From: an uncultured Methylophaga sp.
Lineage (GTDB): Bacteria; Pseudomonadota; Gammaproteobacteria; Nitrosococcales; Methylophagaceae
NCBI GenBank assembly: GCA_964430395.1
Contig: CAYSGK010000003.1
Span: 1-29,496, forward strand
Length of the DNA stretch: 29,496 nt
Reading direction: 5' to 3'
Shown: one piece after another, positions 10,000-27,616 of the stretch
Numbering within the stretch: position 1 is the first letter of the stretch
Layout of the letters: every line of letters begins with the position of its first letter
Position numbers and translations under genes: made by a program
The notes under the pieces: generated by a model
The model's input: only the letters and a program-made list of their open reading frames with translations
The model's database searches: none
What the model was told of the DNA's origin: nothing

Positions 10000-10112
10000 G
10001 TGACAAAGCAAGTGCTTGAGTCACGACTTGTAACAAAAAGGAATTTTTCCTAATTGCAGTTAGCAGTGGTTTTGCTAATATCGCTCTCGATATTTTATTT
10101 AATTGAGAGCGA
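10000..10112 (+). promoter_or_regulatory. Structured leader / operator cluster upstream of the TonB-dependent receptor
   Basis: Three inverted repeats: GTGAC-A-AAGCA-AG-TGCTT-GA-GTCAC (10000-10024), TTAGCA-N7-TGCTAA (10060-10078), TCGCTCTCGAT-N10-ATTGAGAGCGA (10081-10112). Function not established. Confidence 0.4.
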
Positions 10113-10126
10113 GAGAGTTGCAGAAT

Positions 10127-12418
10127 ATGAATTTACCCCATAAACGATCAGTTTTATCACTGGTGCTACTAAGTGCGATGACAGCAACAGCTGTTATGGC
10201 AGAAGATAGTATTGAATTAACAGATATAGAAGTTATCGGCACAACGCCATTACATGGTGTCGGTTTGCCGGCTGACCAAATTGCCAGCAATGTTCAAACG
10301 GCCACATCAGAAGATATCGATAAGGCTCAAGGGCTTGATTTGACTGATTTTATGACGCGTACTTTGGGTAGTGTTAATATTAATTCAGCTCAAAATAACC
10401 CTTATCAACCTGACGTGCAATACCGTGGTTTTAGTGCATCACCATTGCTTGGTTTATCACAAGGTTTAGCCGTTTATATGGATGGTGTTCGGTTGAATAC
10501 GCCATTTGGTGATAATGTGCATTGGGATACCATTCCACAATCAGCGATTGCTAGTATTAATTTAATGCCGGGCTCTAATCCTTTATTCGGATTGAACACA
10601 CTGGGCGGTGCATTATCAATTGAAAGTAAAAATGGTTTTACCAATCCAGGGCATTCAATTCAAGGCTATTGGGGATCGTTTAACCGCCGTGCGGTTGAAA
10701 TTGAAAGTGGTGCCAATGATGGTAAATTGGGTTATTTTGTAACAGGTAACTGGTTTAAAGAAGACGGCTACCGTGATGCATCGCCCTCAGAAGTGAAACA
10801 ATTATTTGCCAATACTAGCTGGCGTAGTGATACCTCAACATTGGATTTAAGCTTAACGGCTACTGATAATGAGTTGATAGGTAATGGCCCGGCACCAGTT
10901 GAATTGATCGATATTAACCGAAGGGCAGCATTTACTATTCCTGATATCACTAAAAATAGAATGCAATTACTTAACTTAACAGGCAGTCATTGGATTAATG
11001 ATAATCTGCAAGTGGCAGGTAATGCCTATTATCGACATAATAAAACGGATAGTTTTAATGGCGATGGTGCAGGTTTTGCAGATGATGGTACATTCTTTAC
11101 CGAAGATGATGGTGTTACGCGTATAAAAGACCAAAATGGTAACGATATTCTAATCTCAGATGCGATTAATAATCGTGGAGCTATTAAGGAAAATAGCGGA
11201 GGTTTACAAGGTCAATTAACCTTCTTAAATGATATTGCCGGTTATGAAAACCAACTGATTACTGGTGCCAGTTATGATAGGGGTAAAAGTGATTATAATG
11301 CGACTGTTGAGGTGGTTGATTTAAATACTGACCGATCAACAACCAAAACAGGCATTTTTGTTCCAAGCGAAGAAGTCGATGTAACCTCTAAGAATCGTAC
11401 ATATAGTCTATTCTTTACCGATACTGTGTCATTGACTGAACAGTTAGCACTGACATTGAGTGGTCGTTATAATAATACTGAAATTAAAGTAAAAGACAAT
11501 CTTGATGCGGCTTCAACGATTAATGCAACACATAAGTTTAATCGCTTTAATCCAGCAGCAGGTCTGACTTTTGCCTTTAATGATATGGCATCGACTTACT
11601 TGAGTTATAGTGAATCATCTCGTGCGCCTACACCTTCTGAATTAGGTTGTTCAGATCCAAATGCACCGTGTACTTTACCCAATGCTTTTTTGTCTGATCC
11701 ACCATTAAATCAGGTTGTAGCAAAAAGTTGGGAAGGTGGCTTAAGAGGTCATTGGGGGCAATCTGTTTCTTGGAATGCAGGCCTGTTCACTACTACCAAT
11801 CATGATGATATCTTATTTATCAGTACTGGTGGAACAACAGGAAACCTAGGTTATTTTGACAATATCGGTAAAACACGCCGCCAGGGTATTGAGTTAGGTG
11901 TATCAGGCGAGCAAGGCGCATTATCATGGGCTGTAAATTATTCCTATGTTGATGCGGAATTCCGTTCACCACTTAAAATAAGTAGTCCTGCCCATCCTAA
12001 TGCCGATGGCAATGGTGATATTTTTGTGAAATCGGGTGATAAAATTCCTAGCATTCCAGCACATAATCTTAAATTAGTAGCAGATTATGCTATTACACCT
12101 AAATTCTCATTTGGCGGTGATGCATTGTTAAATGCAGATCAATATTACCGAGGCGATGAGTCAAACCAACTAGGCAAAATAGCCGGTTACACGGTGGTTA
12201 ATTTACATGCTCACTATAATGTAACTCCTCATGTTAGATTCTTTGCGAAACTTGATAATCTGTTTGATCGAGAATATTCAAACTTTGGATTATTAGGGGA
12301 TCCAAGCGAGATATTTGATGGTAGCGGTCCAGGCCGTGGGCCAGCTATGTCTAACCCACGTTTTGAAGGCGTAGGTGCACCACGTGCCGGTTGGATTGGA
12401 ATTAAAGTTTCGATGTAA
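10127..12418 (+). CDS. TonB-dependent outer membrane receptor (probable ATG start 10127)
   Basis: Signal peptide MNLPHKRSVLSLVLLSAMTATAVMA, TonB-box-like TDIEVIG, plug motifs YRGFSASP / VYMDGVRLN / GSNPLFGLNTLGGALSI, barrel end FAKLDNLFDREY...GWIGIKVSM. Confidence 0.95.
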   Translation: MNLPHKRSVLSLVLLSAMTATAVMAEDSIELTDIEVIGTTPLHGVGLPADQIASNVQTATSEDIDKAQGLDLTDFMTRTLGSVNINSAQNNPYQPDVQYRGFSASPLLGLSQGLAVYMDGVRLNTPFGDNVHWDTIPQSAIASINLMPGSNPLFGLNTLGGALSIESKNGFTNPGHSIQGYWGSFNRRAVEIESGANDGKLGYFVTGNWFKEDGYRDASPSEVKQLFANTSWRSDTSTLDLSLTATDNELIGNGPAPVELIDINRRAAFTIPDITKNRMQLLNLTGSHWINDNLQVAGNAYYRHNKTDSFNGDGAGFADDGTFFTEDDGVTRIKDQNGNDILISDAINNRGAIKENSGGLQGQLTFLNDIAGYENQLITGASYDRGKSDYNATVEVVDLNTDRSTTKTGIFVPSEEVDVTSKNRTYSLFFTDTVSLTEQLALTLSGRYNNTEIKVKDNLDAASTINATHKFNRFNPAAGLTFAFNDMASTYLSYSESSRAPTPSELGCSDPNAPCTLPNAFLSDPPLNQVVAKSWEGGLRGHWGQSVSWNAGLFTTTNHDDILFISTGGTTGNLGYFDNIGKTRRQGIELGVSGEQGALSWAVNYSYVDAEFRSPLKISSPAHPNADGNGDIFVKSGDKIPSIPAHNLKLVADYAITPKFSFGGDALLNADQYYRGDESNQLGKIAGYTVVNLHAHYNVTPHVRFFAKLDNLFDREYSNFGLLGDPSEIFDGSGPGRGPAMSNPRFEGVGAPRAGWIGIKVSM

Positions 12419-12868: not shown

Positions 12869-14188
12869 ATGAGTTTGCGAACATTAATTAACTTACGAAT
12901 TTTATTATCTGTAGTTTTGATTTTGATTCTAGGTGGCATGACGGCAGTATGGCAAGCACGGCAGTCAGTTAAAAAAGAAGTGAAATCATCAATCACATTA
13001 GCATTGCAGATGATTGAACTTGGTTTTGCACAGGCACCCGCTGCGGGCAAAAATAGTAGTGAATGGTTATCACGAATTAGTGCTTTGCAACAGACGAGAC
13101 ATTTGCAGTTTGCAATTATTCAAGACGGGGGTAAACCAATAAAATTTGCCTTTCATCGGGAGGTTGACAACTCAGAATCTAGGCCACCCAACTGGTTTAT
13201 TCAAGCGGTGGGGACAGAATATTTGACAGAACGATATGATGTCAGCATGGCTGATGGCAGTAAACAAACTATTTTAATTACGGCGAACCCGCTGGATGAG
13301 ATCACGGAAGCCTGGGGTGAGTCTAAAGCATTTTTTTGGTCGGTTGTGGTGATGCTTTTAGTTATATTTCTTGCGGTAAATTTAGTATTCAATTCCATGT
13401 TACGAGCAGTACAAGCTATTTTAACGGGGCTTCATCAAGTGGAAGCGGGTAAGTATGACATTACTATTACTAAGTCTAATATTAGCGAATTCGATGCGAT
13501 TGCGACAGAAGTAAATGAAATGTCACGGGCGTTAAAAGTTGCACAGGAAAATAATCAAGCATTGGCACGGCATACTATGCAAATTCAAGAGACAGAACGT
13601 AAAACCCTATCACGCGAATTGCACGATGAAATGGGACAATCACTAACTGCAATTAAAGCGATGGCTGTGACATCACAACAGAAAAATAGTGATGTAGCAT
13701 CAATAGCAGATTCAATTATTGAAATTTGTGACCATTTAGCCAAGGTAGTTCGTTCGATGATGCGAACATTGCATCCACTCAGTCTAACGGAACTGGGTTT
13801 GAATGCGACATTGACCGACTTAGTCAGTGAGTGGCAGCGTCGTCAGCCGGATCTTGATATTACATTTCAGTATGATGAGCCGTTAGATAAGCTAGGTAGT
13901 GAGCTCGCAATTAATGTTTATCGTGTGACGCAAGAATGTTTAACTAATGTGGTCAGGCATGCTAATGCCAGCAAGGTGAATGTAATTATCGCTTATACTG
14001 GCGATCGTGTAGTAATAACCGTGAGGGATAATGGTATAGGTGCGCAAGCGGGTTCACAAGGTTTCGGTGTGTTAGGTATGCGTGAGCGAGTTGAAAATAT
14101 GGGAGGCCAACTTAATTTTAATTCGTCGCAAGGACAAGGGGTAATAGTGACTGCTTGGATGCCATTTGTGGGGAAAAAGAGTGAGTAA
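12869..14188 (+). CDS. Membrane sensor histidine kinase, HisKA_3 (NarX/UhpB) type with HAMP; MoxY/MxcQ-like architecture
   Basis: Two TM helices flanking a periplasmic domain containing PPNWF, HAMP region, H-box LSRELHDEMGQSLTAI, N-box QECLTNVVRHA, DNGIG and GFGVLGMRERV. Confidence 0.9.
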   Translation: MSLRTLINLRILLSVVLILILGGMTAVWQARQSVKKEVKSSITLALQMIELGFAQAPAAGKNSSEWLSRISALQQTRHLQFAIIQDGGKPIKFAFHREVDNSESRPPNWFIQAVGTEYLTERYDVSMADGSKQTILITANPLDEITEAWGESKAFFWSVVVMLLVIFLAVNLVFNSMLRAVQAILTGLHQVEAGKYDITITKSNISEFDAIATEVNEMSRALKVAQENNQALARHTMQIQETERKTLSRELHDEMGQSLTAIKAMAVTSQQKNSDVASIADSIIEICDHLAKVVRSMMRTLHPLSLTELGLNATLTDLVSEWQRRQPDLDITFQYDEPLDKLGSELAINVYRVTQECLTNVVRHANASKVNVIIAYTGDRVVITVRDNGIGAQAGSQGFGVLGMRERVENMGGQLNFNSSQGQGVIVTAWMPFVGKKSE

Positions 14189-14825
14189 GAAATTAAAAGT
14201 ATTATTAGTTGATGATCATACTGTGGTCAGGGCAGGGTTTCGTATGCTGTTGTCATCACAAAACTTTATTGATGAGATTATGGATGTAGATCGGGGTGAA
14301 ATGGCTTGCCAACATTATAATGAATTTCAGCCCAATGTGGTGGTGATGGATTTATCAATGCCGGGTATTGGTGGTTTGGAAGCAATACGCCGTTTGATTC
14401 AATTAGATAGTGATGCGGTAGTATTGGTGTATAGTATTCATGATGAAGCTATTTATGTGGAGCGTGCTTTACAGGCCGGAGCAAAGGGATATGTGACTAA
14501 AAATAGTGCGGCTAGCGTGCTGGCAGAGGCGGTGTCAGTTGTGGCATCAGGCAAAGAATATCTTGAAGACGGATTATTGCCGGAACACTATTATAGTGAT
14601 GAAGAAAATCTTAGAGAAGTGGTTGATATATTATCACCGCGTGAGTTTGATGTTTTCTGTTTGTTAGCTAAAGGAATGACAGTACATGAAGCCGCAGCTG
14701 ATTTATGCTTGGGTTATAAAACAGTTGCGAATTATAGTACGCAGATCAAAAATAAATTAAATGCGAGCACCGCGGCTGATCTAGCGCATATCGCTATGCG
14801 TTTAGGTATTATTAAAAGCCATTGA
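14181..14825 (+). CDS. LuxR/NarL-family response regulator (probable GTG start 14181)
   Basis: KVLLVDDH, VVMDLSMPGIGGLE, GAKGYVTK, C-terminal HTH LSPREFDVFCLLAKG...KTVANYSTQIKNKL; overlaps the kinase stop. Confidence 0.92.
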   Translation: MSKKLKVLLVDDHTVVRAGFRMLLSSQNFIDEIMDVDRGEMACQHYNEFQPNVVVMDLSMPGIGGLEAIRRLIQLDSDAVVLVYSIHDEAIYVERALQAGAKGYVTKNSAASVLAEAVSVVASGKEYLEDGLLPEHYYSDEENLREVVDILSPREFDVFCLLAKGMTVHEAAADLCLGYKTVANYSTQIKNKLNASTAADLAHIAMRLGIIKSH

Positions 14826-14892
14826 TTAGTATCTGATGAACTAATTATAAATTACTACGGTCACAGTTATGTTTAGTGCTATTATAATGATT

Positions 14893-15255
14893 ATGAAAAA
14901 AAGAAATACACTATTTTGGATTTTCTTTAGCTTGTTTTTTATTCAGCAGGCGGGCTTAGTTGTGGCTGATTCATTTTCCGATCACAAGCATGCGATACCA
15001 GCCGAAATGATAGGGCATCATACAATGGATCATGCGATGGCTAGCACCGATGGTTCATCCGATATGTCAATGAATAAGCCTTGTTGTAAGGTTAATTGCC
15101 ACTGTGGTGCACTGGGCTGTGGTAGTGCGCTTATTTTTCATGTTACACCAACGCAGAGCGTGGCAATTCTCCCTGATGTACTAGATTCTCACTATGTGTT
15201 TACTCAAACGCTAATACATTATTCTTCTCTATTTCGTCCCCCCATTTCTATCTAA
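14893..15255 (+). CDS. CopL/CzcI/DUF2946-like Cys/His/Met-rich upstream protein with C-terminal RPP
   Basis: Basic-hydrophobic N-terminus, His/Met-rich middle, CCKVNCHCGALGC, ends LFRPPISI; first gene of the cus cluster. The start could also be 14869 or 14887. Confidence 0.7.
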   Translation: MKKRNTLFWIFFSLFFIQQAGLVVADSFSDHKHAIPAEMIGHHTMDHAMASTDGSSDMSMNKPCCKVNCHCGALGCGSALIFHVTPTQSVAILPDVLDSHYVFTQTLIHYSSLFRPPISI

Positions 15256-15385
15256 CACAGGGTTAGTGTGTCTGTAATTTACAGATAAACATAGTTATTC
15301 CCTAAAAATCTTGTTATCGAGCACGGTTAAAGATGCTCGGCTAATAATGTTATTGCTAAACCTTGTTTAGCCGTTAGAGTAGAGA

Positions 15386-16783
15386 ATGAAAATGAATATT
15401 TCACATCGTTTTACAAAAATAAAAGTCACATTCTGCTGGCCGCTATTTTTTATATTTTTGGCAGTGAGCGCCACCTATGCAGATGAAATAAATCTGCCTT
15501 TATCATTGGAGCAAGCCATTCAGCAGGCGAAGACTAATGATCCGTGGTTGGTCGAGAACCAGTTTATCCAAAATGCACAGCTTTCAAGATCAATAGCTGC
15601 AGGGACATTACCTGATCCTGTGGTATCACTAGGTTTTCTTAATTTACCTACAGATGGATTTGATTTTAATCAAGAAGATATGACTCAGTTGAAAGCAGGG
15701 ATCAGTCAAATGTTTCCACGCGGAGATACATTGCAACTACAGAGCAAAAAACTGCAAATATTAAGTGGGCAGAATCCCTATTTAAGAGCAGATAGAAAAG
15801 AACGGATTAGCGTCATTGTTACTGCCTTGTGGCTTGACGCCTTTAATGCAAAAGAAAGTATTCGCCTAATTGAGCAGGATCGGGATTTATTTGAACAATT
15901 ACTTGATGTTTCGGAGGTGAGCTATTCAACTGCATTTGGAGGCACGCAACAACAGGATGTAGTAAGAGCACAATTAGAACTAACACGTCTCGATGACCGG
16001 CTAACGCAATTGAAACAACAACAGGATGTTGCACAGAAGAAATTATCACAATGGATCAGCGGTCAGTTTACCGAGCAATATTCAGATTCAGCCATATCGA
16101 GTCCAGCAACAATTGAAATTGATAATAAAAAGTTTCCCCAGCTTGTCTTAAAACAAGCGGATCTTATTGAGATAAATGATCAATTATTGCCAGAAAAATT
16201 AGCTAATTATTTTGTCCAACATCCCGCTATGTTGGCATTGGAAAGCCGTATTCAGGCGAGTCAAACAGAGGTCGAATTAACACAGCAAAAATACAAGTCA
16301 CAGTGGGGAGTAAATGCCGCTTATAGCTATCGGGCAGATCGAGCTTCAGGCAGAAGTCGAGCAAATTTTTTATCAATAGGGATTAACTTTGATCTACCAC
16401 TATTTACTGAGAATAAACAAGATAAACAAGTACAAGCCTCTATTTCAGAGGCAGAAGCGATAAAAACCCAGAAGTGGCTATTATTACGAAAAATGATTGC
16501 TGACTTTCAAACATCAAAAGCCAATTTGCAACGCCTAGAGCAACGATCCAGGCTTTACAGTGAACAATTATTACCTAAAATTCATGAACAAGCAGAAGCA
16601 GCACTTACTGCCTATACCAATGACGAGGGCGATTTTGCAGAGGTGGTGCGAGCGCGAATTGATGTTCTTGATACAGAAATAGAAAATTTAAATATTGAAG
16701 TAGATAAGAAAAAAACAATTGCCCAGCTTAATTATTATATGGCAATAAACGGCGATTTAATAAAGCAAGGAAATCAAAAATGA
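15386..16783 (+). CDS. cusC: TolC-family outer membrane factor of the Cu/Ag RND pump (CusC-like, no obvious lipobox)
   Basis: Signal peptide, LSLEQAIQQA, LPDPVVSLG, QQDVVRAQLEL, INFDLPLF, DFAEVVRA; precedes the MFP and RND genes. Confidence 0.85.
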   Translation: MKMNISHRFTKIKVTFCWPLFFIFLAVSATYADEINLPLSLEQAIQQAKTNDPWLVENQFIQNAQLSRSIAAGTLPDPVVSLGFLNLPTDGFDFNQEDMTQLKAGISQMFPRGDTLQLQSKKLQILSGQNPYLRADRKERISVIVTALWLDAFNAKESIRLIEQDRDLFEQLLDVSEVSYSTAFGGTQQQDVVRAQLELTRLDDRLTQLKQQQDVAQKKLSQWISGQFTEQYSDSAISSPATIEIDNKKFPQLVLKQADLIEINDQLLPEKLANYFVQHPAMLALESRIQASQTEVELTQQKYKSQWGVNAAYSYRADRASGRSRANFLSIGINFDLPLFTENKQDKQVQASISEAEAIKTQKWLLLRKMIADFQTSKANLQRLEQRSRLYSEQLLPKIHEQAEAALTAYTNDEGDFAEVVRARIDVLDTEIENLNIEVDKKKTIAQLNYYMAINGDLIKQGNQK

Positions 16784-18297
16784 ATATATTAAAAAGTCTA
16801 TTTTTACTTGTTATCGGTGCTGTATTTGGCGCCGCATTGATTAAATACTCTTTTCCCGAGTTTTTGGATAGCGTGATGGCTCCAGCAACAATGGAAATGG
16901 AAGAAGATAAACCGCTTTATTGGGTTGCACCAATGAATCCCGATTTTAAAAAAGATAAACCGGGAAAATCGCCTATGGGTATGGATCTTGTTCCAGTATA
17001 TGCTGATAAAGTATCAGACAATGATGAAGGTGCTGGTACGATTAGAATTTCAGCTGATGTAGTTAACAATATAGGGGTTCGCGTTACCCAAGTGATGCAA
17101 AAATCACTACAGAATGAAATTAAAACGGTAGGTTATGTCAAATATGATGAGGATCGGCTTATTCACGTTCATCCGCGCGTTGAAGGTTGGGTAGAAAAAT
17201 TATATGTAAAGGCTGAAGGGGATCCCGTAAAACGAGGACAAGCTCTCTATACCTTATATTCGCCCAACTTAGTCAATGCGCAAGAAGAATATTTAATTGC
17301 TTTGCAACGAAAAAATGAACGTTTGATACGAGCAACCCAAGCAAGAATGAAAGCTTTAGATATTTCTGCGTGGTTTATCACAAACTTGAAAAAGACCCGA
17401 AAAGTGAAACAATCAGTCACATTTTATGCACCGCAATCAGGAGTAATGACAAAGCTAAATATACGTGAAGGCTTTTTTGTTAAACCAGAAACATCGATGA
17501 TGTCTATTGGTGTGATTGATAATGTGTGGGTGCAAGCTGAAATATTTGAACGGCAAGCAGATCAAGTAAAAGTTGGCGCGCCTGTCACAATGACCTTATC
17601 TTATTTTCCTGGAAGAGAGTGGCAGGGCAAAGTAGATTATATTTATCCTACGCTAGAATCTTCTACTCGCACATTAAGGGTACGACTCCGTTTTGAAAAT
17701 AAAGATAAAGCGCTTATGCCAAACATGTTTACACAGGTTGCTATTCATACCGGCAATACTACACCTGTTTTAGTATTGCCTAGAGAGGCTGTTATTCGCA
17801 CGGGTGATATGGATAGGGTTGTATTAGCGCTTGGGAATGGAACTTTTAAATCTATTGCAGTAAAAATAGGGCGTTCTGATAATTATAATATTGAGATATT
17901 GCAAGGGCTTAGTAAGGGCGAAAAAGTGGTTGCTTCGGCGCAATTTTTAATTGATTCAGAGTCTAGTAAAACATCTGATTTTAAAAGAATGAATCATCAA
18001 AGAAAATCAATGAATAATACTGATGATGAAATGGATAAGGCAGAAAAGCCATCAGCACAAGTAGCAGGTGTAATCAACGCCATAATGGCTGAACATAGAA
18101 TGATCAATATCAGTCGAGAAGCGATTATTAAATGGAATAGACCGAAAGCCACCCTAGATTTTATGGTTGATAATTCTGTGGATATAACAAAACTAAGCAA
18201 CGGGCAGAAAATTGATTTTCGCTTTGAAATTAATAACGGTACATTTGTGATCACTGATATTAAGCCTCAAATGGGTAAAGAGGAGACGAAACAATGA
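16780..18297 (+). CDS. cusB: CusB-type membrane fusion protein with C-terminal CusF-like domain
   Basis: Met site YWVAPMNP...GKSPMGMDLVP, GWVEKL, LYSPNLVNAQEEY, IYPTL, LMPNMF, GEKVVASAQFLIDSES, followed by an extra OB-fold-like tail. Confidence 0.93.
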   Translation: MNILKSLFLLVIGAVFGAALIKYSFPEFLDSVMAPATMEMEEDKPLYWVAPMNPDFKKDKPGKSPMGMDLVPVYADKVSDNDEGAGTIRISADVVNNIGVRVTQVMQKSLQNEIKTVGYVKYDEDRLIHVHPRVEGWVEKLYVKAEGDPVKRGQALYTLYSPNLVNAQEEYLIALQRKNERLIRATQARMKALDISAWFITNLKKTRKVKQSVTFYAPQSGVMTKLNIREGFFVKPETSMMSIGVIDNVWVQAEIFERQADQVKVGAPVTMTLSYFPGREWQGKVDYIYPTLESSTRTLRVRLRFENKDKALMPNMFTQVAIHTGNTTPVLVLPREAVIRTGDMDRVVLALGNGTFKSIAVKIGRSDNYNIEILQGLSKGEKVVASAQFLIDSESSKTSDFKRMNHQRKSMNNTDDEMDKAEKPSAQVAGVINAIMAEHRMINISREAIIKWNRPKATLDFMVDNSVDITKLSNGQKIDFRFEINNGTFVITDIKPQMGKEETKQ

Positions 18298-21200
18298 TTG
18301 CCGGGATTATTCGTTGGTCAATCAATAACCGCTTCTTTGTAATATTAGCAGCATTTATTATTGTTGGGTTGGGGCTTTATTCGGTGAAAAATACACCGTT
18401 GGATGCGATTCCTGATTTGTCGGATGTTCAAGTGATTATTAAAACTAGCTACCCCGGACAAGCGCCACAAGTAGTAGAAGATCAAGTGACTTATCCGCTT
18501 ACCACTGCCATGTTATCAGTGCCTGGTTCAGTGACAGTGCGAGGTTATTCTTTTTTTGGTGATTCTTATGTTTACATTATCTTTGATGAAAAAACAGATC
18601 TGTATTGGGCTCGAAGTCGGGTTCTTGAATATTTGAGTCAAGTTGCCCCTAACCTTCCGCCTACCGCCAAACCGCAATTAGGTCCCGATGCGACGGGCGT
18701 AGGTTGGGTATATATCTATGCTTTGCAAGATAAAACAGGGCAACATGATATTAGCCAGCTACGTAGTATTCAGGATTGGTTTTTGAAATATGAATTACAA
18801 ACTGTTCCTGGCGTCTCAGAAGTATCTGCAGTAGGTGGAATGGTTAAGCAATATCAAATTCAAGTTGATCCCGATAAATTGCGTGCTTATGGTATTCCAC
18901 TTACTCAAATACAGATAGCTATTCAACATGGGAATCAGGAAATTGGTGCTTCAGTTGTTGAAATGTCTGAGGCTGAATATATGGTTAGAGCTACAGGATA
19001 TATTAAAAGTATTGAAGATTTGAATACGATACCTTTAGGAGTGAACAAAAATGGCACCCCTTTGTTATTAAAAGATCTAGCTGAAATTAGTGCGGGTCCT
19101 CAAATGCGACGAGGTGTCGCTGAGCTGAATGGAGAAGGTGAAACCGTAGGTGGTATTGTTGTAATGCGTTTTGGTGAAAATGCCCAAAAAACAATAGATG
19201 GTGTAAAGTCGAAATTGCAGCAATTAAAACAAAGCCTGCCTAAAGGTGTGGAAATTGTACCTGTTTATGATCGCAGCGCACTGATTGAGCGAGCTGTAGA
19301 TAATTTAGGGCACAAATTATTAGAAGAATTTATTGTTGTGGCATTTGTCTGCATGGTATTTTTATTTCATATTCGTTCGTCACTTGTTGCTATTGTCAGC
19401 TTGCCTGTCGGAATATTAGCTGCATTTATTATTATGCATGCGCAAGGAATCAATGCCAATATCATGTCTTTAGGCGGGATAGCTATAGCCATTGGTGCCA
19501 TGATTGATGGCGCTATTGTGATGATTGAAAATATGCACAAACATATGGAGAGGATCCCCATAAATAAAGAAAACCGCTGGCAGATCGTAATAGATTCTGC
19601 AACAGAAGTGGGTCCTGCATTGTTTTTCAGTCTATTAATTATCACTATCAGTTTTGTGCCTGTATTTACGCTAGAGGCACAAGAGGGACGTATGTTTGCA
19701 CCTTTAGCATTTACTAAAACCTATGCTATGGCGGCTTCTGCACTATTGGCGATTACACTAGTACCCGTATTGATGGGCTATTTTGTGCGAGGCAAGATTT
19801 TACCAGAACATAAAAACCCCATTAATCGATTATTAACAGGGATCTATATGCCCGTATTAAAAGGGGCACTAAAATTGCCATTGGTAACCGTAATTATTGC
19901 AATTGTTATTGCTGTTATTGGATTACTGCCAGCTAAAAATATTGGTAGTGAATTTATCCCACCTTTGGATGAGGGAGATTTGATGTATATGCCTACAACC
20001 TACCCTGGTATTTCAATAGGTAAGGCACGTGAGTTATTACAACAAACAGACAAGTTGATTAGCACTATACCTGAGGTTAAAACTGTTTTTGGTAAGGTAG
20101 GTCGAGCTGAAACGGCCACCGATCCCGCCCCATTAACGATGATTGAAACTTTTATTCAGCTTAAACCTCATTCTGAATGGCGAGTGGGTATGAACACTGA
20201 GAAATTAAAAACAGAATTCAATGATTTAATTCGATTTCCTGGTGTAACAAATGCATGGGTTATGCCAATTAAAACGCGAATTGATATGTTGGCAACGGGT
20301 ATAAAAACACCCGTTGGAATAAAGGTTGCTGGGCCAGACTTGAAGGTCATTCAACAAATTGGGCAGCAATTAGAAACGATTATTAAAGATGTTCCCGGCA
20401 CAGCTTCAGTTTATTCAGAGCGAGTGGCTGGAGGGCGATATATCAAAATCGATATTCAACGTGAAAAAGCAGCACGTTATGGTTTGAATATTTCTGATGT
20501 GCAGCAAGTTATTGCTACGGCTGTTGGTGGCATTAATGTTTCTCAATCAGTTGAAGGTTTAGAACGTTATCCAATTAATATTCGCTACCCACAGGATTAT
20601 CGCAATTCACCCGAGCAAATGGCTTTATTACCCATTGTGACAGCAAAAAATGAGCGTATTGCCTTGGGTGATGTGGCGCATATCTATATTGAAGACGGCC
20701 CCCCTGCAATCAAAAGTGAAAATGCACGCTTAAATGGCTGGACCTATATTGATATTGAAAATGTGGATATTGGCAGCTATGTTGAGCAGGCACAAAGAAT
20801 TGTTAAACAACAAGGTAATTTACCTGCAGGATACTCATTAATTTGGTCTGGTCAATATGAATATATGTTGCGTGCTAAAGAAAAATTGACCTATGTGATT
20901 CCATTAACCTTAGCCATTATAATTATCTTGTTATATATCAATTTTCGTCGTTTTGCAGAAGTGGCCATTATTATGGCAACCTTGCCATTGGCAATGGTAG
21001 GCAGTATCCAGTTAATGGCCTATTTAGGTTTTAATTTTTCTGTTGCAGTGGGGGTTGGCTTTATTGCCTTGGCAGGGGTGGCAGTAGAGATTAGCGTGAT
21101 TATGTTGATATATCTTAACCAAGCCTATGAGCGTATGCGTTCTGATTGTGAACAAAAAGGTATTAAACCGACAGTGCTTATTCTACGTCAAGCTATAATG

Positions 21201-21431
21201 GATGGGGCAGGAATGCGTGTCAGACCGGTTATGATGACCGCCGCTGCTATCATTGTAGGCTTATTGCCCGTTATGTATGGTACGGGAACAGGATCAGAAG
21301 TGATGAGCCGAATTGCAGCACCCATGGTAGGAGGCATGATAACAGCACTTATTATGACTTTATTAGTATTACCTGTGGTCTACTTTATGTGGCGTAAGTT
21401 TTCTATTCGGGCTTATCACAGCCATAATTGA
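18294..21431 (+). CDS. cusA: CusA heavy-metal RND efflux transporter (Cu(I)/Ag(I))
   Basis: LDAIPDLSDVQVII, GAMIDGAIVMIEN, Met triad equivalents YMPT / TMIET / IDMLATG, RVRPVMMT; 1045 aa. Confidence 0.97.
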   Translation: MIAGIIRWSINNRFFVILAAFIIVGLGLYSVKNTPLDAIPDLSDVQVIIKTSYPGQAPQVVEDQVTYPLTTAMLSVPGSVTVRGYSFFGDSYVYIIFDEKTDLYWARSRVLEYLSQVAPNLPPTAKPQLGPDATGVGWVYIYALQDKTGQHDISQLRSIQDWFLKYELQTVPGVSEVSAVGGMVKQYQIQVDPDKLRAYGIPLTQIQIAIQHGNQEIGASVVEMSEAEYMVRATGYIKSIEDLNTIPLGVNKNGTPLLLKDLAEISAGPQMRRGVAELNGEGETVGGIVVMRFGENAQKTIDGVKSKLQQLKQSLPKGVEIVPVYDRSALIERAVDNLGHKLLEEFIVVAFVCMVFLFHIRSSLVAIVSLPVGILAAFIIMHAQGINANIMSLGGIAIAIGAMIDGAIVMIENMHKHMERIPINKENRWQIVIDSATEVGPALFFSLLIITISFVPVFTLEAQEGRMFAPLAFTKTYAMAASALLAITLVPVLMGYFVRGKILPEHKNPINRLLTGIYMPVLKGALKLPLVTVIIAIVIAVIGLLPAKNIGSEFIPPLDEGDLMYMPTTYPGISIGKARELLQQTDKLISTIPEVKTVFGKVGRAETATDPAPLTMIETFIQLKPHSEWRVGMNTEKLKTEFNDLIRFPGVTNAWVMPIKTRIDMLATGIKTPVGIKVAGPDLKVIQQIGQQLETIIKDVPGTASVYSERVAGGRYIKIDIQREKAARYGLNISDVQQVIATAVGGINVSQSVEGLERYPINIRYPQDYRNSPEQMALLPIVTAKNERIALGDVAHIYIEDGPPAIKSENARLNGWTYIDIENVDIGSYVEQAQRIVKQQGNLPAGYSLIWSGQYEYMLRAKEKLTYVIPLTLAIIIILLYINFRRFAEVAIIMATLPLAMVGSIQLMAYLGFNFSVAVGVGFIALAGVAVEISVIMLIYLNQAYERMRSDCEQKGIKPTVLILRQAIMDGAGMRVRPVMMTAAAIIVGLLPVMYGTGTGSEVMSRIAAPMVGGMITALIMTLLVLPVVYFMWRKFSIRAYHSHN

Positions 21432-24634: not shown

Positions 24635-24660
24635 TTTTCATTACAAAATTGTAATGAAAA
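24635..24660. promoter_or_regulatory. CusR/CopR box upstream of copAB
   Basis: Perfect dyad TTTTCATTACAA-AA-TTGTAATGAAAA; core ATTACAA-N2-TTGTAAT matches the E. coli CusR box ATGACAA-N2-TTGTCAT. Confidence 0.85.
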
Positions 24661-27590: not shown

Positions 27591-27616
27591 TTTTCATTAC
27601 AAAATTGTAATGAAAA
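27591..27616. promoter_or_regulatory. Second CusR/CopR box, identical to 24635-24660
   Basis: TTTTCATTACAAAATTGTAATGAAAA, inside a 64-bp direct repeat of the copAB promoter region. Confidence 0.85.

Follow-up and report, generated by a model that had tools for sequence, protein, structure and literature searches.

What controls the copper/silver efflux pump operon cusCBA of an uncultured marine Methylophaga sp. is the question raised by the stretch of DNA analysed here, 29,496 nucleotides of contig CAYSGK010000003.1 (the window). The island around the pump encodes cusRS, and exact CusR-type boxes stand before two other copper operons, while the pump is preceded by a 120-residue open reading frame (ORF) and no such box. 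We consider it probable, with appreciable doubt, that this ORF is a cis-acting, metal-sensing leader similar to CutF and CopL that controls translation of cusCBA, and that it is a conserved regulatory leader of the CutF/CopL-like kind is very likely. The features of the leader and its presumed target are as follows.

14893-15255, forward strand: leader ORF, CopL/CutF-like, 120 amino acids, from ATG 14893 to a TAA stop at 15253-15255
14893-14967, forward strand: signal peptide of the leader ORF, assigned by inspection
about 14980-15075 (residues ~30-60), forward strand: His/Met tract of the leader ORF
15082-15120, forward strand: Cys cluster CCx3CxCx4C of the leader ORF (Cys 64, 65, 69, 71 and 76)
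15235-15243, forward strand: RPP codons CGT CCC CCC of the leader ORF (residues 115-117 of 120)
15392-21431, forward strand: cusC (encoding the outer membrane efflux protein, OEP), cusB and cusA, the presumed regulated operon, identified with Pfam

Architecture and Family of the Leader Protein

The leader protein opens with the signal-peptide-like sequence MKKRNTLFWIFFSLFFIQQAGLVVA, with putative cleavage before D, and closes with SLFRPPISI directly followed by the stop codon. Judged by inspection and not with a dedicated predictor, the signal peptide has KKR as its n-region, then a hydrophobic core of 12 residues, and a plausible cleavage site between VVA and D; AlphaFold places a helix at residues 3-22. 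The longest in-frame form of the ORF starts at ATG 14869 and has 128 residues, and a further in-frame ATG lies at 14887, although homologs begin at the MKKRN position of ATG 14893. A first-pass annotation, made from the letters of the window, had described a 120-residue ORF with an export-like N-terminus, a His/Met tract, five Cys and a C-terminal LFRPPISI encoded with CGT CCC CCC at 15235-15243, all of which was borne out.

That annotation also linked the ORF to CruR and DUF2946, and here it did not hold: a Pfam scan of the leader protein returned no match at E ≤ 10, DUF2946 (PF11162) included, and DUF2946 is matched by three of 40 aligned relatives, weakly (best E 0.034). Among the profiles that it had named for comparison (CopL, CzcI and DUF2946), the NCBIfam family CopL_fam (NF033807) is the one matched, though weakly, with 19.4-19.7 bits and an E-value of about 1e-3 for the leader, below the curated cut-off of 40 bits, over nearly the full length (profile positions 39-128 of 129). 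All 40 aligned relatives match CopL_fam at E ≤ 0.01 (best E 2.4e-11), and a single relative matches the CzcI family, weakly. Since the leader falls below the cut-offs of both CopL_fam and DUF2946, leaders of this type are missed or annotated as hypothetical.

A word-indexed homolog search gave only two close relatives, and an exhaustive HMMER profile search over 1.84 billion representatives gave 101, which share the same architecture, are about 90-165 residues long and align through the last residue. In the 40-sequence alignment, R-P-P and three of the Cys (both of the CC pair and one other) are invariant, and the two remaining Cys are nearly so, as is the Ile that follows PP; the shared signature is CCx3CxCx4C with [F/Y]RPPI. 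RPP is present in 98 of 103 sequences, the remainder having K, H or Y before PP. Among those 98, exactly three residues separate RPP from the C-terminus in 84, the last Cys stands 36-40 residues ahead of the RPP Arg in 91, and that Arg follows F or Y in all but one, which has N. At the level of sequence comparison, this confirms that the joint pattern of Cys cluster and RPP exceeds chance, and it supports reading the ORF as a conserved arrest-type leader before cusCBA, in line with the first-pass proposal of an arrest ORF.

These data also bear on whether the product acts as a mature periplasmic metal-binding protein, such as a CzcI- or CopL-like regulator or chaperone, the RPP tail and RNA structure being incidental or serving expression balance. 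We regard this as unlikely. It would account for the signal peptide with its plausible cleavage site, for the metal-binding composition and for the weak CzcI match of one relative. However, AlphaFold2, run with the family alignment, was confident only for the signal-peptide helix and predicted neither fold nor secondary structure beyond it (predicted local distance difference test 46-60; predicted template modelling score 0.21). The best-kept features, moreover, are the distance from RPPI to the stop and the spacing between Cys cluster and RPP, for neither of which a mature domain would have an evident use, and in the characterized systems neither CutF nor CruR can be detected as a protein in vivo, nor do copL and cutF work in trans (PMC9973294, PMC9426467).

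Within the Methylophaga clade the signal peptide, MK.RNTLFWIFFSLFFIQQ (14893-14967), is much better kept than the remaining protein. The first 75 nucleotides are near-identical in three loci, and we rejected an RNA element as the reason: synonymous-codon identity there is 0.72 compared with 0.56-0.67 elsewhere, a slight rise only, and the constraint is therefore mainly on the signal peptide itself. Such strong conservation is unusual for signal peptides and may reflect targeting through the signal recognition particle (SRP) or a role in the arrest.

Two further observations concern the coding sequence. A terminator-like hairpin (15106-15131), with a T-run extending to 15140, lies inside the ORF over the codons of the Cys cluster; it is not kept in homologs, and it was therefore set aside as probably a chance structure and not a real terminator. 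All ten clade loci listed, and 14 of 18 loci overall (L003-L023), use CCC for the second Pro of RPP, the ten representing eight distinct leaders with L019 and L022 duplicating L018 and L021. Among the Pro codons of the window, just 18% are CCC, and for the first Pro of RPP the codons CCC, CCA and CCT interchange freely; the bias points to codon-level or RNA-level selection at this position.

Leaders in Related Genomes

A match was found in 11 of 41 related genomes, G000 included, and in nine of the genus's other 24 genomes. Close relatives, taken from Methylophaga genomes (L005, L006, L008) and from metagenomes (L018-L022), keep the module of leader, 129-144-nucleotide spacer, OEP gene and then cusB/CusF. 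The gene after the leader encodes an OEP in the window and in seven of eight loci of relatives tested, the eighth (L014) having a multicopper oxidase; the more distant Methylophaga leaders likewise precede OEP genes, L014 excepted. In one metagenomic locus (L004:766-1741) an insertion sequence with an rve-family transposase sits just after hairpin P3 (see below) and splits leader and spacer from the ribosome binding site (RBS) of the pump.

The Spacer RNA and Predicted Masking of the cusC Start

The first-pass annotation had ended the region upstream of cusC at the in-frame ATG 15386. Homologs of cusC align six nucleotides later, to ATG 15392, so the spacer between leader and cusC measures 136 nucleotides instead of 130. 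The predicted RNA elements of this region, which include cusC's Shine-Dalgarno (SD) sequence, are the following.

15232-15256, forward strand: 5' strand of P0 (anti-RBS), comprising the F-R-P codons UUUCGUC (15232-15238) and the last codons, stop and one further nucleotide (15245-15256)
15259-15303, forward strand: P1, a long hairpin directly after the stop, core TCTGTA/TACAGA (15271-15285)
15311-15347, forward strand: P2 hairpin, core CGAGCA/TGCTCG (15318-15339)
15354-15372, forward strand: P3 hairpin, CTAAAC/GTTTAG
15373-15397, forward strand: 3' strand of P0, comprising the cusC SD region GUUAGAGUAGAGA (15373-15385) and the start region with ATG 15386 and ATG 15392

In the predicted P0 helix, the start region of cusC (15391-15397) is bound by UUUCGUC (15232-15238) and the SD region (15373-15385) by positions 15245-15256, which closes a spacer of ~116 nucleotides that holds the three hairpins. 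In size, the 5' strand of P0 roughly matches what a ribosome would cover when its P site holds a Pro codon. RNAalifold gave the same architecture on four and then on seven non-redundant loci, and among the seven, compensatory double changes occur in 7 of 17 pairs of P1, 7 of 13 pairs of P2, two pairs of P3 and four pairs of P0; those of P1 are visible in L003, L004 and L023 too. Canonical pairing across the helices is 86-96%, and shifting the 3' partner by 1-3 columns lowers it to 21-55%; for the 19 pairs of P0 it is 90% against 39-54% in the shifted controls, and for P3 it is 96%.

Single-sequence minimum free energy folds agree, in that 8-15 of 19 RBS nucleotides pair with the leader tail in all seven loci. 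For the window, this pairing exceeds that of 60/60 variants in which the last 12 codons were recoded synonymously and that of 60/60 shuffles; L021, L006, L012 and L013 behave similarly in these controls and L018 is marginal. The cusC RBS is also the most base-paired among 18 genes of the window, with an unpaired probability of 0.11-0.16 compared with a median of about 0.54.

The primary output could instead be transcriptional, as in CruR, where a paused ribosome would shield the spacer from Rho or a nuclease and RBS unmasking would be secondary, which we consider unlikely. CruR works in this manner with a 162-nucleotide spacer (PMC9426467), the spacer here is similarly long at 130-136 nucleotides, and an untranslated 6-kb cusCBA message would be exposed to Rho anyway. 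The spacer is nevertheless AT-rich with three tight, covarying hairpins, not C-rich and unstructured; no intrinsic terminator was found in it, and the SD and AUG are paired specifically to the pause site.

We modelled occlusion by forcing a 27-nucleotide ribosome footprint to be unpaired. Modelled accessibility of the window RBS rises from 0.19 to 0.49 when the P site is placed on either of the Pro codons, while with the ribosome at the last sense codon it returns to 0.23; L006, L018 and L021 respond like the window. Taken with the recodings, the occlusion test favours the switch in the window, L006, L021, L012 and L013. The difference between the Pro codons and the last sense codon bears on plain translational coupling without metal sensing, in which any ribosome that finishes the leader opens P0 and the Cys and His residues serve another purpose. 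P0 does bring the stop codon beside the cusC start and the promoter looks to be of constitutive type, but the modelled RBS opens with a ribosome on the Pro codons and not at the stop codon. Coupling would also leave the invariant Cys cluster, the fixed spacing and RPP unexplained and, as there is no CusR box, the pump without any metal control at all. We therefore rate it as improbable.

Two other readings of the spacer were examined. An Rfam scan of 14700-15600 returned only a chance-level SAM-SAH match inside cusC (16 bits against a gathering score of 40 bits). The core of P1, TCTGTAatTTACAGA, was considered as a CusR-type box and rejected: the order and spacing of its half-sites are wrong, and in homologs it varies with compensation, in the manner of an RNA stem.

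Promoter and a Putative Leaderless Start

The leader is preceded by one promoter-like element.

14873-14885, forward strand: extended -10 element TTAGTGcTATTAT, putative promoter of a leaderless transcript, ending 7 nucleotides before ATG 14893

The motif TG(c)TATTAT occupies 14877-14885, and no SD-like purine run was seen between 14885 and ATG 14893, both as the first-pass annotation had noted. By a crude test, about six of 18 other genes of the window are also without an SD, so that its lack before the leader is weak evidence alone. Ahead of the ORF, 12 clade loci have a single stretch of conserved DNA, the extended -10 TTAGTG(c/t)TAnnAT, whose hexamer ends 6-9 nucleotides before the start codon in all 12; upstream DNA is not alignable between loci, homology starting ~20 nucleotides before the start codon. 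As background in the window, an extended -10 ends 6-9 nucleotides before 0.58% of ATG triplets, and a plain TAnnnT stands at that distance from 7.9%. The conserved placement supports the suggestion, already made in the first-pass annotation, that the leader is translated from a leaderless transcript, which we regard as probable from these sequences.

Distant Methylophaga RPP leaders that precede other OEP genes (L010, L012, L015 and L017) also have a consensus -10 close to the ATG and no SD: TGgTATAAT with 6 nucleotides to the ATG in L010, TGgTAAAAT with 6 in L012, TATTAT with 7 in L015 and TATAAT with 6 in L017. Leaderless initiation may thus be a general habit of such leaders in Methylophaga. 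The mRNA of CruR has a 45-nucleotide 5' untranslated region (UTR) (PMC9426467), and the term "leaderless" is absent from the CutF (PMC9973294) and CruR (PMC9426467) papers. Read-through from the two-component genes upstream would give the leader ORF a 5' UTR without an SD.

CusR Boxes and Transcriptional Control

A palindrome scan of the window found the 18-nucleotide CusR-type palindrome CATTACAAAATTGTAATG exactly at 24639-24656, before the multicopper oxidase gene copA, and at 27595-27612, before the YHS/DUF411/DUF2231 genes; no box within 3 mismatches occurs elsewhere in the window, including 14826-15391. The first-pass annotation, which placed exact boxes before the other two copper operons and none near the leader, was correct in this, although its further claim that the leader acts instead of CusR is not demonstrable from sequence. 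The missing box does not exclude other transcriptional inputs. Both boxes are embedded in a longer, near-identical promoter stretch, which agrees with a duplicated promoter cassette.

Control of the pump could instead be chiefly transcriptional, by a regulator not recognised here (CusR at a degenerate site, the NarL-type system upstream, or read-through), with the leader fine-tuning the output. The NarL-type gene ends 67 nucleotides upstream of the leader (14825), no terminator was found between the two, and cusRS lies in the same island. Yet no CusR box is found even at 3 mismatches, and the upstream genes of relatives are unrelated, with homology only from the -10 box on; we consider this explanation very improbable. 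For the same reason, that upstream genes differ and homology begins at the -10 box, the adjacent NarL-type two-component system was rejected as a conserved partner of the leader.

Comparison with Known Regulatory Leaders

The closest precedent is CutF of Rhodobacter capsulatus (cutFOG), where translation of a nascent chain directed to Sec pauses at a proline motif near the C-terminus, the halted ribosome frees the downstream SD, and periplasmic copper lengthens the pause (PMC9973294; bioRxiv 10.1101/2025.02.05.636593). CutF-like genes most often precede OEP (CusC/CzcC/SilC) genes, and CopL, SilD and CusD are labelled in the same network (Ozturk et al. 2023, PMC9973294). Three of the four rules by which Ozturk et al. 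2023 recognise CutF-like proteins describe the leader outright: it has 120 residues, below the limit of 150, its PP falls within the last 15 residues (RPP at 115-117 of 120), and cusC lies 130-136 nucleotides 3' of it. The fourth, the signal peptide, was assigned by inspection.

Like CutF, the leader is small (<150 residues) and putatively Sec-exported, combines a Cys-based metal motif with a candidate stalling motif of prolines at the C-terminus, and is placed in cis before a copper-detoxification gene whose SD is, here by prediction, hidden in RNA structure, and it resembles CutF in the polarity that a pump needs, in which copper would cause stalling and stalling would turn translation on. 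The two differ in the motif (F/Y-R-P-P-I compared with PPP of CutF), in the metal motif (CCx3CxCx4C with a His/Met tract compared with CxxxC), and in the target, which here is a resistance-nodulation-division (RND) pump. The predicted anti-RBS strand of the leader lies in its own last codons and closes a ~116-nucleotide spacer of three hairpins, where CutF has a local intergenic stem-loop, and unlike CutF the leader has a -10 box immediately ahead of its start codon, suggestive of a leaderless mRNA.

CopL of Xanthomonas and Stenotrophomonas is the sole curated family matched by the leader and by all 40 relatives tested, and is likewise a cis-acting small ORF, required for copper induction of the downstream gene. 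It precedes the multicopper oxidase gene copA, whereas the leader precedes an RND pump, and copA in the window has a CusR box and no leader.

CruR of Bordetella pertussis (DUF2946) shares with the leader a long spacer (162 nucleotides in CruR, PMC9426467) and with the leader family a fixed distance between metal motif and arrest motif (45 residues in CruR) and an arrest motif three residues from the end (PMC9426467), from which its authors argued for a nascent-chain sensor (PMC9426467). Its motifs are RAPP and CXXC, compared with RPP and CCx3CxCx4C in the leader. In CruR, copper relieves the arrest, Rho termination follows and expression of an uptake receptor is turned off (PMC9426467); regulation is independent of the signal peptide, and the transcription start site 45 nucleotides upstream makes it not leaderless (PMC9426467). 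An efflux pump needs the copper-ON polarity, which fits the CutF mode, while the copper-OFF, Rho-dependent mode of CruR suits an uptake receptor. The first-pass annotation had already remarked that a pump would need the opposite polarity to CruR; this is so, but the polarity is not new, having been published as the CutF mechanism (PMC9973294; bioRxiv 10.1101/2025.02.05.636593).

SecM, MifM, VemP and ApdA/ApdP follow a shared logic, in which the pulling force of export sets a C-terminal arrest that exposes a downstream RBS (PMC10987492). They monitor the secretion machinery and not metal, their motifs are R-A/G-P-P/G, and they have no sequence relationship to the leader. The RAPP/RPP-like motif of the first-pass annotation is right as to RPP and not as to the four-residue R-A/G-P-P: F-R-P-P-I has no A or G between R and PP, and so departs from the RAPP-like pattern (R/Q/H)-(A/G)-(P/G)-(P/G).

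The leader before cusCBA is thus a new example of a catalogued CutF/CopL-like design and not a new principle, and with OEP genes already the commonest neighbours of CutF-like genes (PMC9973294), the central idea of the first-pass annotation is a published prediction. What appears to be novel is specific to the locus, namely the probable leaderless promoter, the predicted anti-RBS strand that overlaps the codons of arrest and stop and clamps a spacer of three hairpins, and the apparent combination with CusR-box promoters in one island.

Proposed Mechanism

We propose that the module is transcribed from its own extended -10 promoter, giving a leaderless mRNA that probably begins at the A of ATG 14893. 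In free mRNA, 15232-15256 would pair with the SD and start of cusC (15373-15397) across the 116-nucleotide, three-hairpin spacer, and initiation at cusC would be blocked. During translation of the leader, its very hydrophobic, conserved signal peptide would take the nascent chain to the Sec translocon, and on reaching F-R-P-P-I, three codons short of the stop, the ribosome would pause. For as long as it stays on the Pro codons, it would cover the 5' strand of P0 and liberate the cusC RBS. In the partly exported chain, Cu(I) or Ag(I) bound by the five-Cys cluster and the His/Met tract may weaken the pulling or folding force that normally releases the arrest. Metal would in this way lengthen the arrest and turn the pump on, the polarity of CutF and the reverse of CruR, with no call on CusRS.

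Several points weigh against this proposal. The case for this locus, as for any family member before an efflux pump, has been built by sequence comparison. RPP differs from the validated R-A/G-P-P motif, and most carriers of RAPP-like motifs do not stall ribosomes (PMC10987492). The 38-51 residues between Cys cluster and RPP may keep the Cys in or near the translocon at the pause and not free in the periplasm. The RNA structure was scored on the same sequences that gave it, and the pairs of P0a (UUUCGUC/GAUGAAA) are invariant with coding constraint on both sides, so that this part of P0 offers no covariation support. Pairing between RBS and leader tail does not exceed the controls in L005, L008, L020, L009, L011 and L014, and in L005, L008 and L020 the modelled occlusion barely opens the RBS. 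Finally, L021 and L022 fit the -10 spacing only with a GTG start, an uncommon one for leaderless mRNAs.

A stronger version of the proposal is that in this Methylophaga clade the module is a self-contained, mobile and purely translational Cu/Ag switch, with a constitutive extended -10, a leaderless mRNA that opens with a secretion-coupled, metal-sensing arrest peptide, a footprint of the RPP-arrested ribosome that coincides with the 25-nucleotide anti-RBS strand, and no dedicated transcription factor. We advance it tentatively and would place it somewhat short of even. If true, it would make the module the first switch of the CutF type to act on an RND efflux pump, as well as the first leaderless one, and would explain the exact distance of three codons from RPP to the stop.

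Leaders of the CutF type are predicted to occur widely before heavy-metal RND pumps, and this locus gives an explicit, testable design with a defined pause site, a 25-nucleotide anti-RBS strand with compensatory partners, and natural variants. The island would combine two control modes, CusRS-box promoters for copAB and the YHS operon and a leader-only module for the pump. A leaderless start, if real, would mean that a Sec/SRP-targeted arrest peptide can begin by leaderless translation.

Genomic Neighbourhood

Upstream of the leader the window contains the following genes.

1-10 kb: housekeeping genes
10103-12418: TonB-dependent receptor gene
12869-14188: HisKA_3 kinase gene with a LapD/MoxY-type periplasmic sensor domain
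14166-14825: NarL-type regulator gene, ending 67 nucleotides upstream of the leader

Within the pump operon, cusA encodes a CusA/CzcA-family RND protein (NCBIfam TIGR00914, 1234 bits), and cusB (16780-18297) encodes a protein whose N-terminal domain is HMBD and whose C-terminal end carries CusF as a fused domain, with no separate cusF gene; the same cusB-CusF fusion occurs in L020 and L021. The pump is followed on its 3' side by a DUF6789 gene, the convergent cusS-cusR, copA-copB and the YHS operon. DNA of the window occurs in hydrothermal-vent metagenome runs from three studies, no RNA run being listed for the locus, and its closest genome relative is a Methylophaga metagenome-assembled genome.

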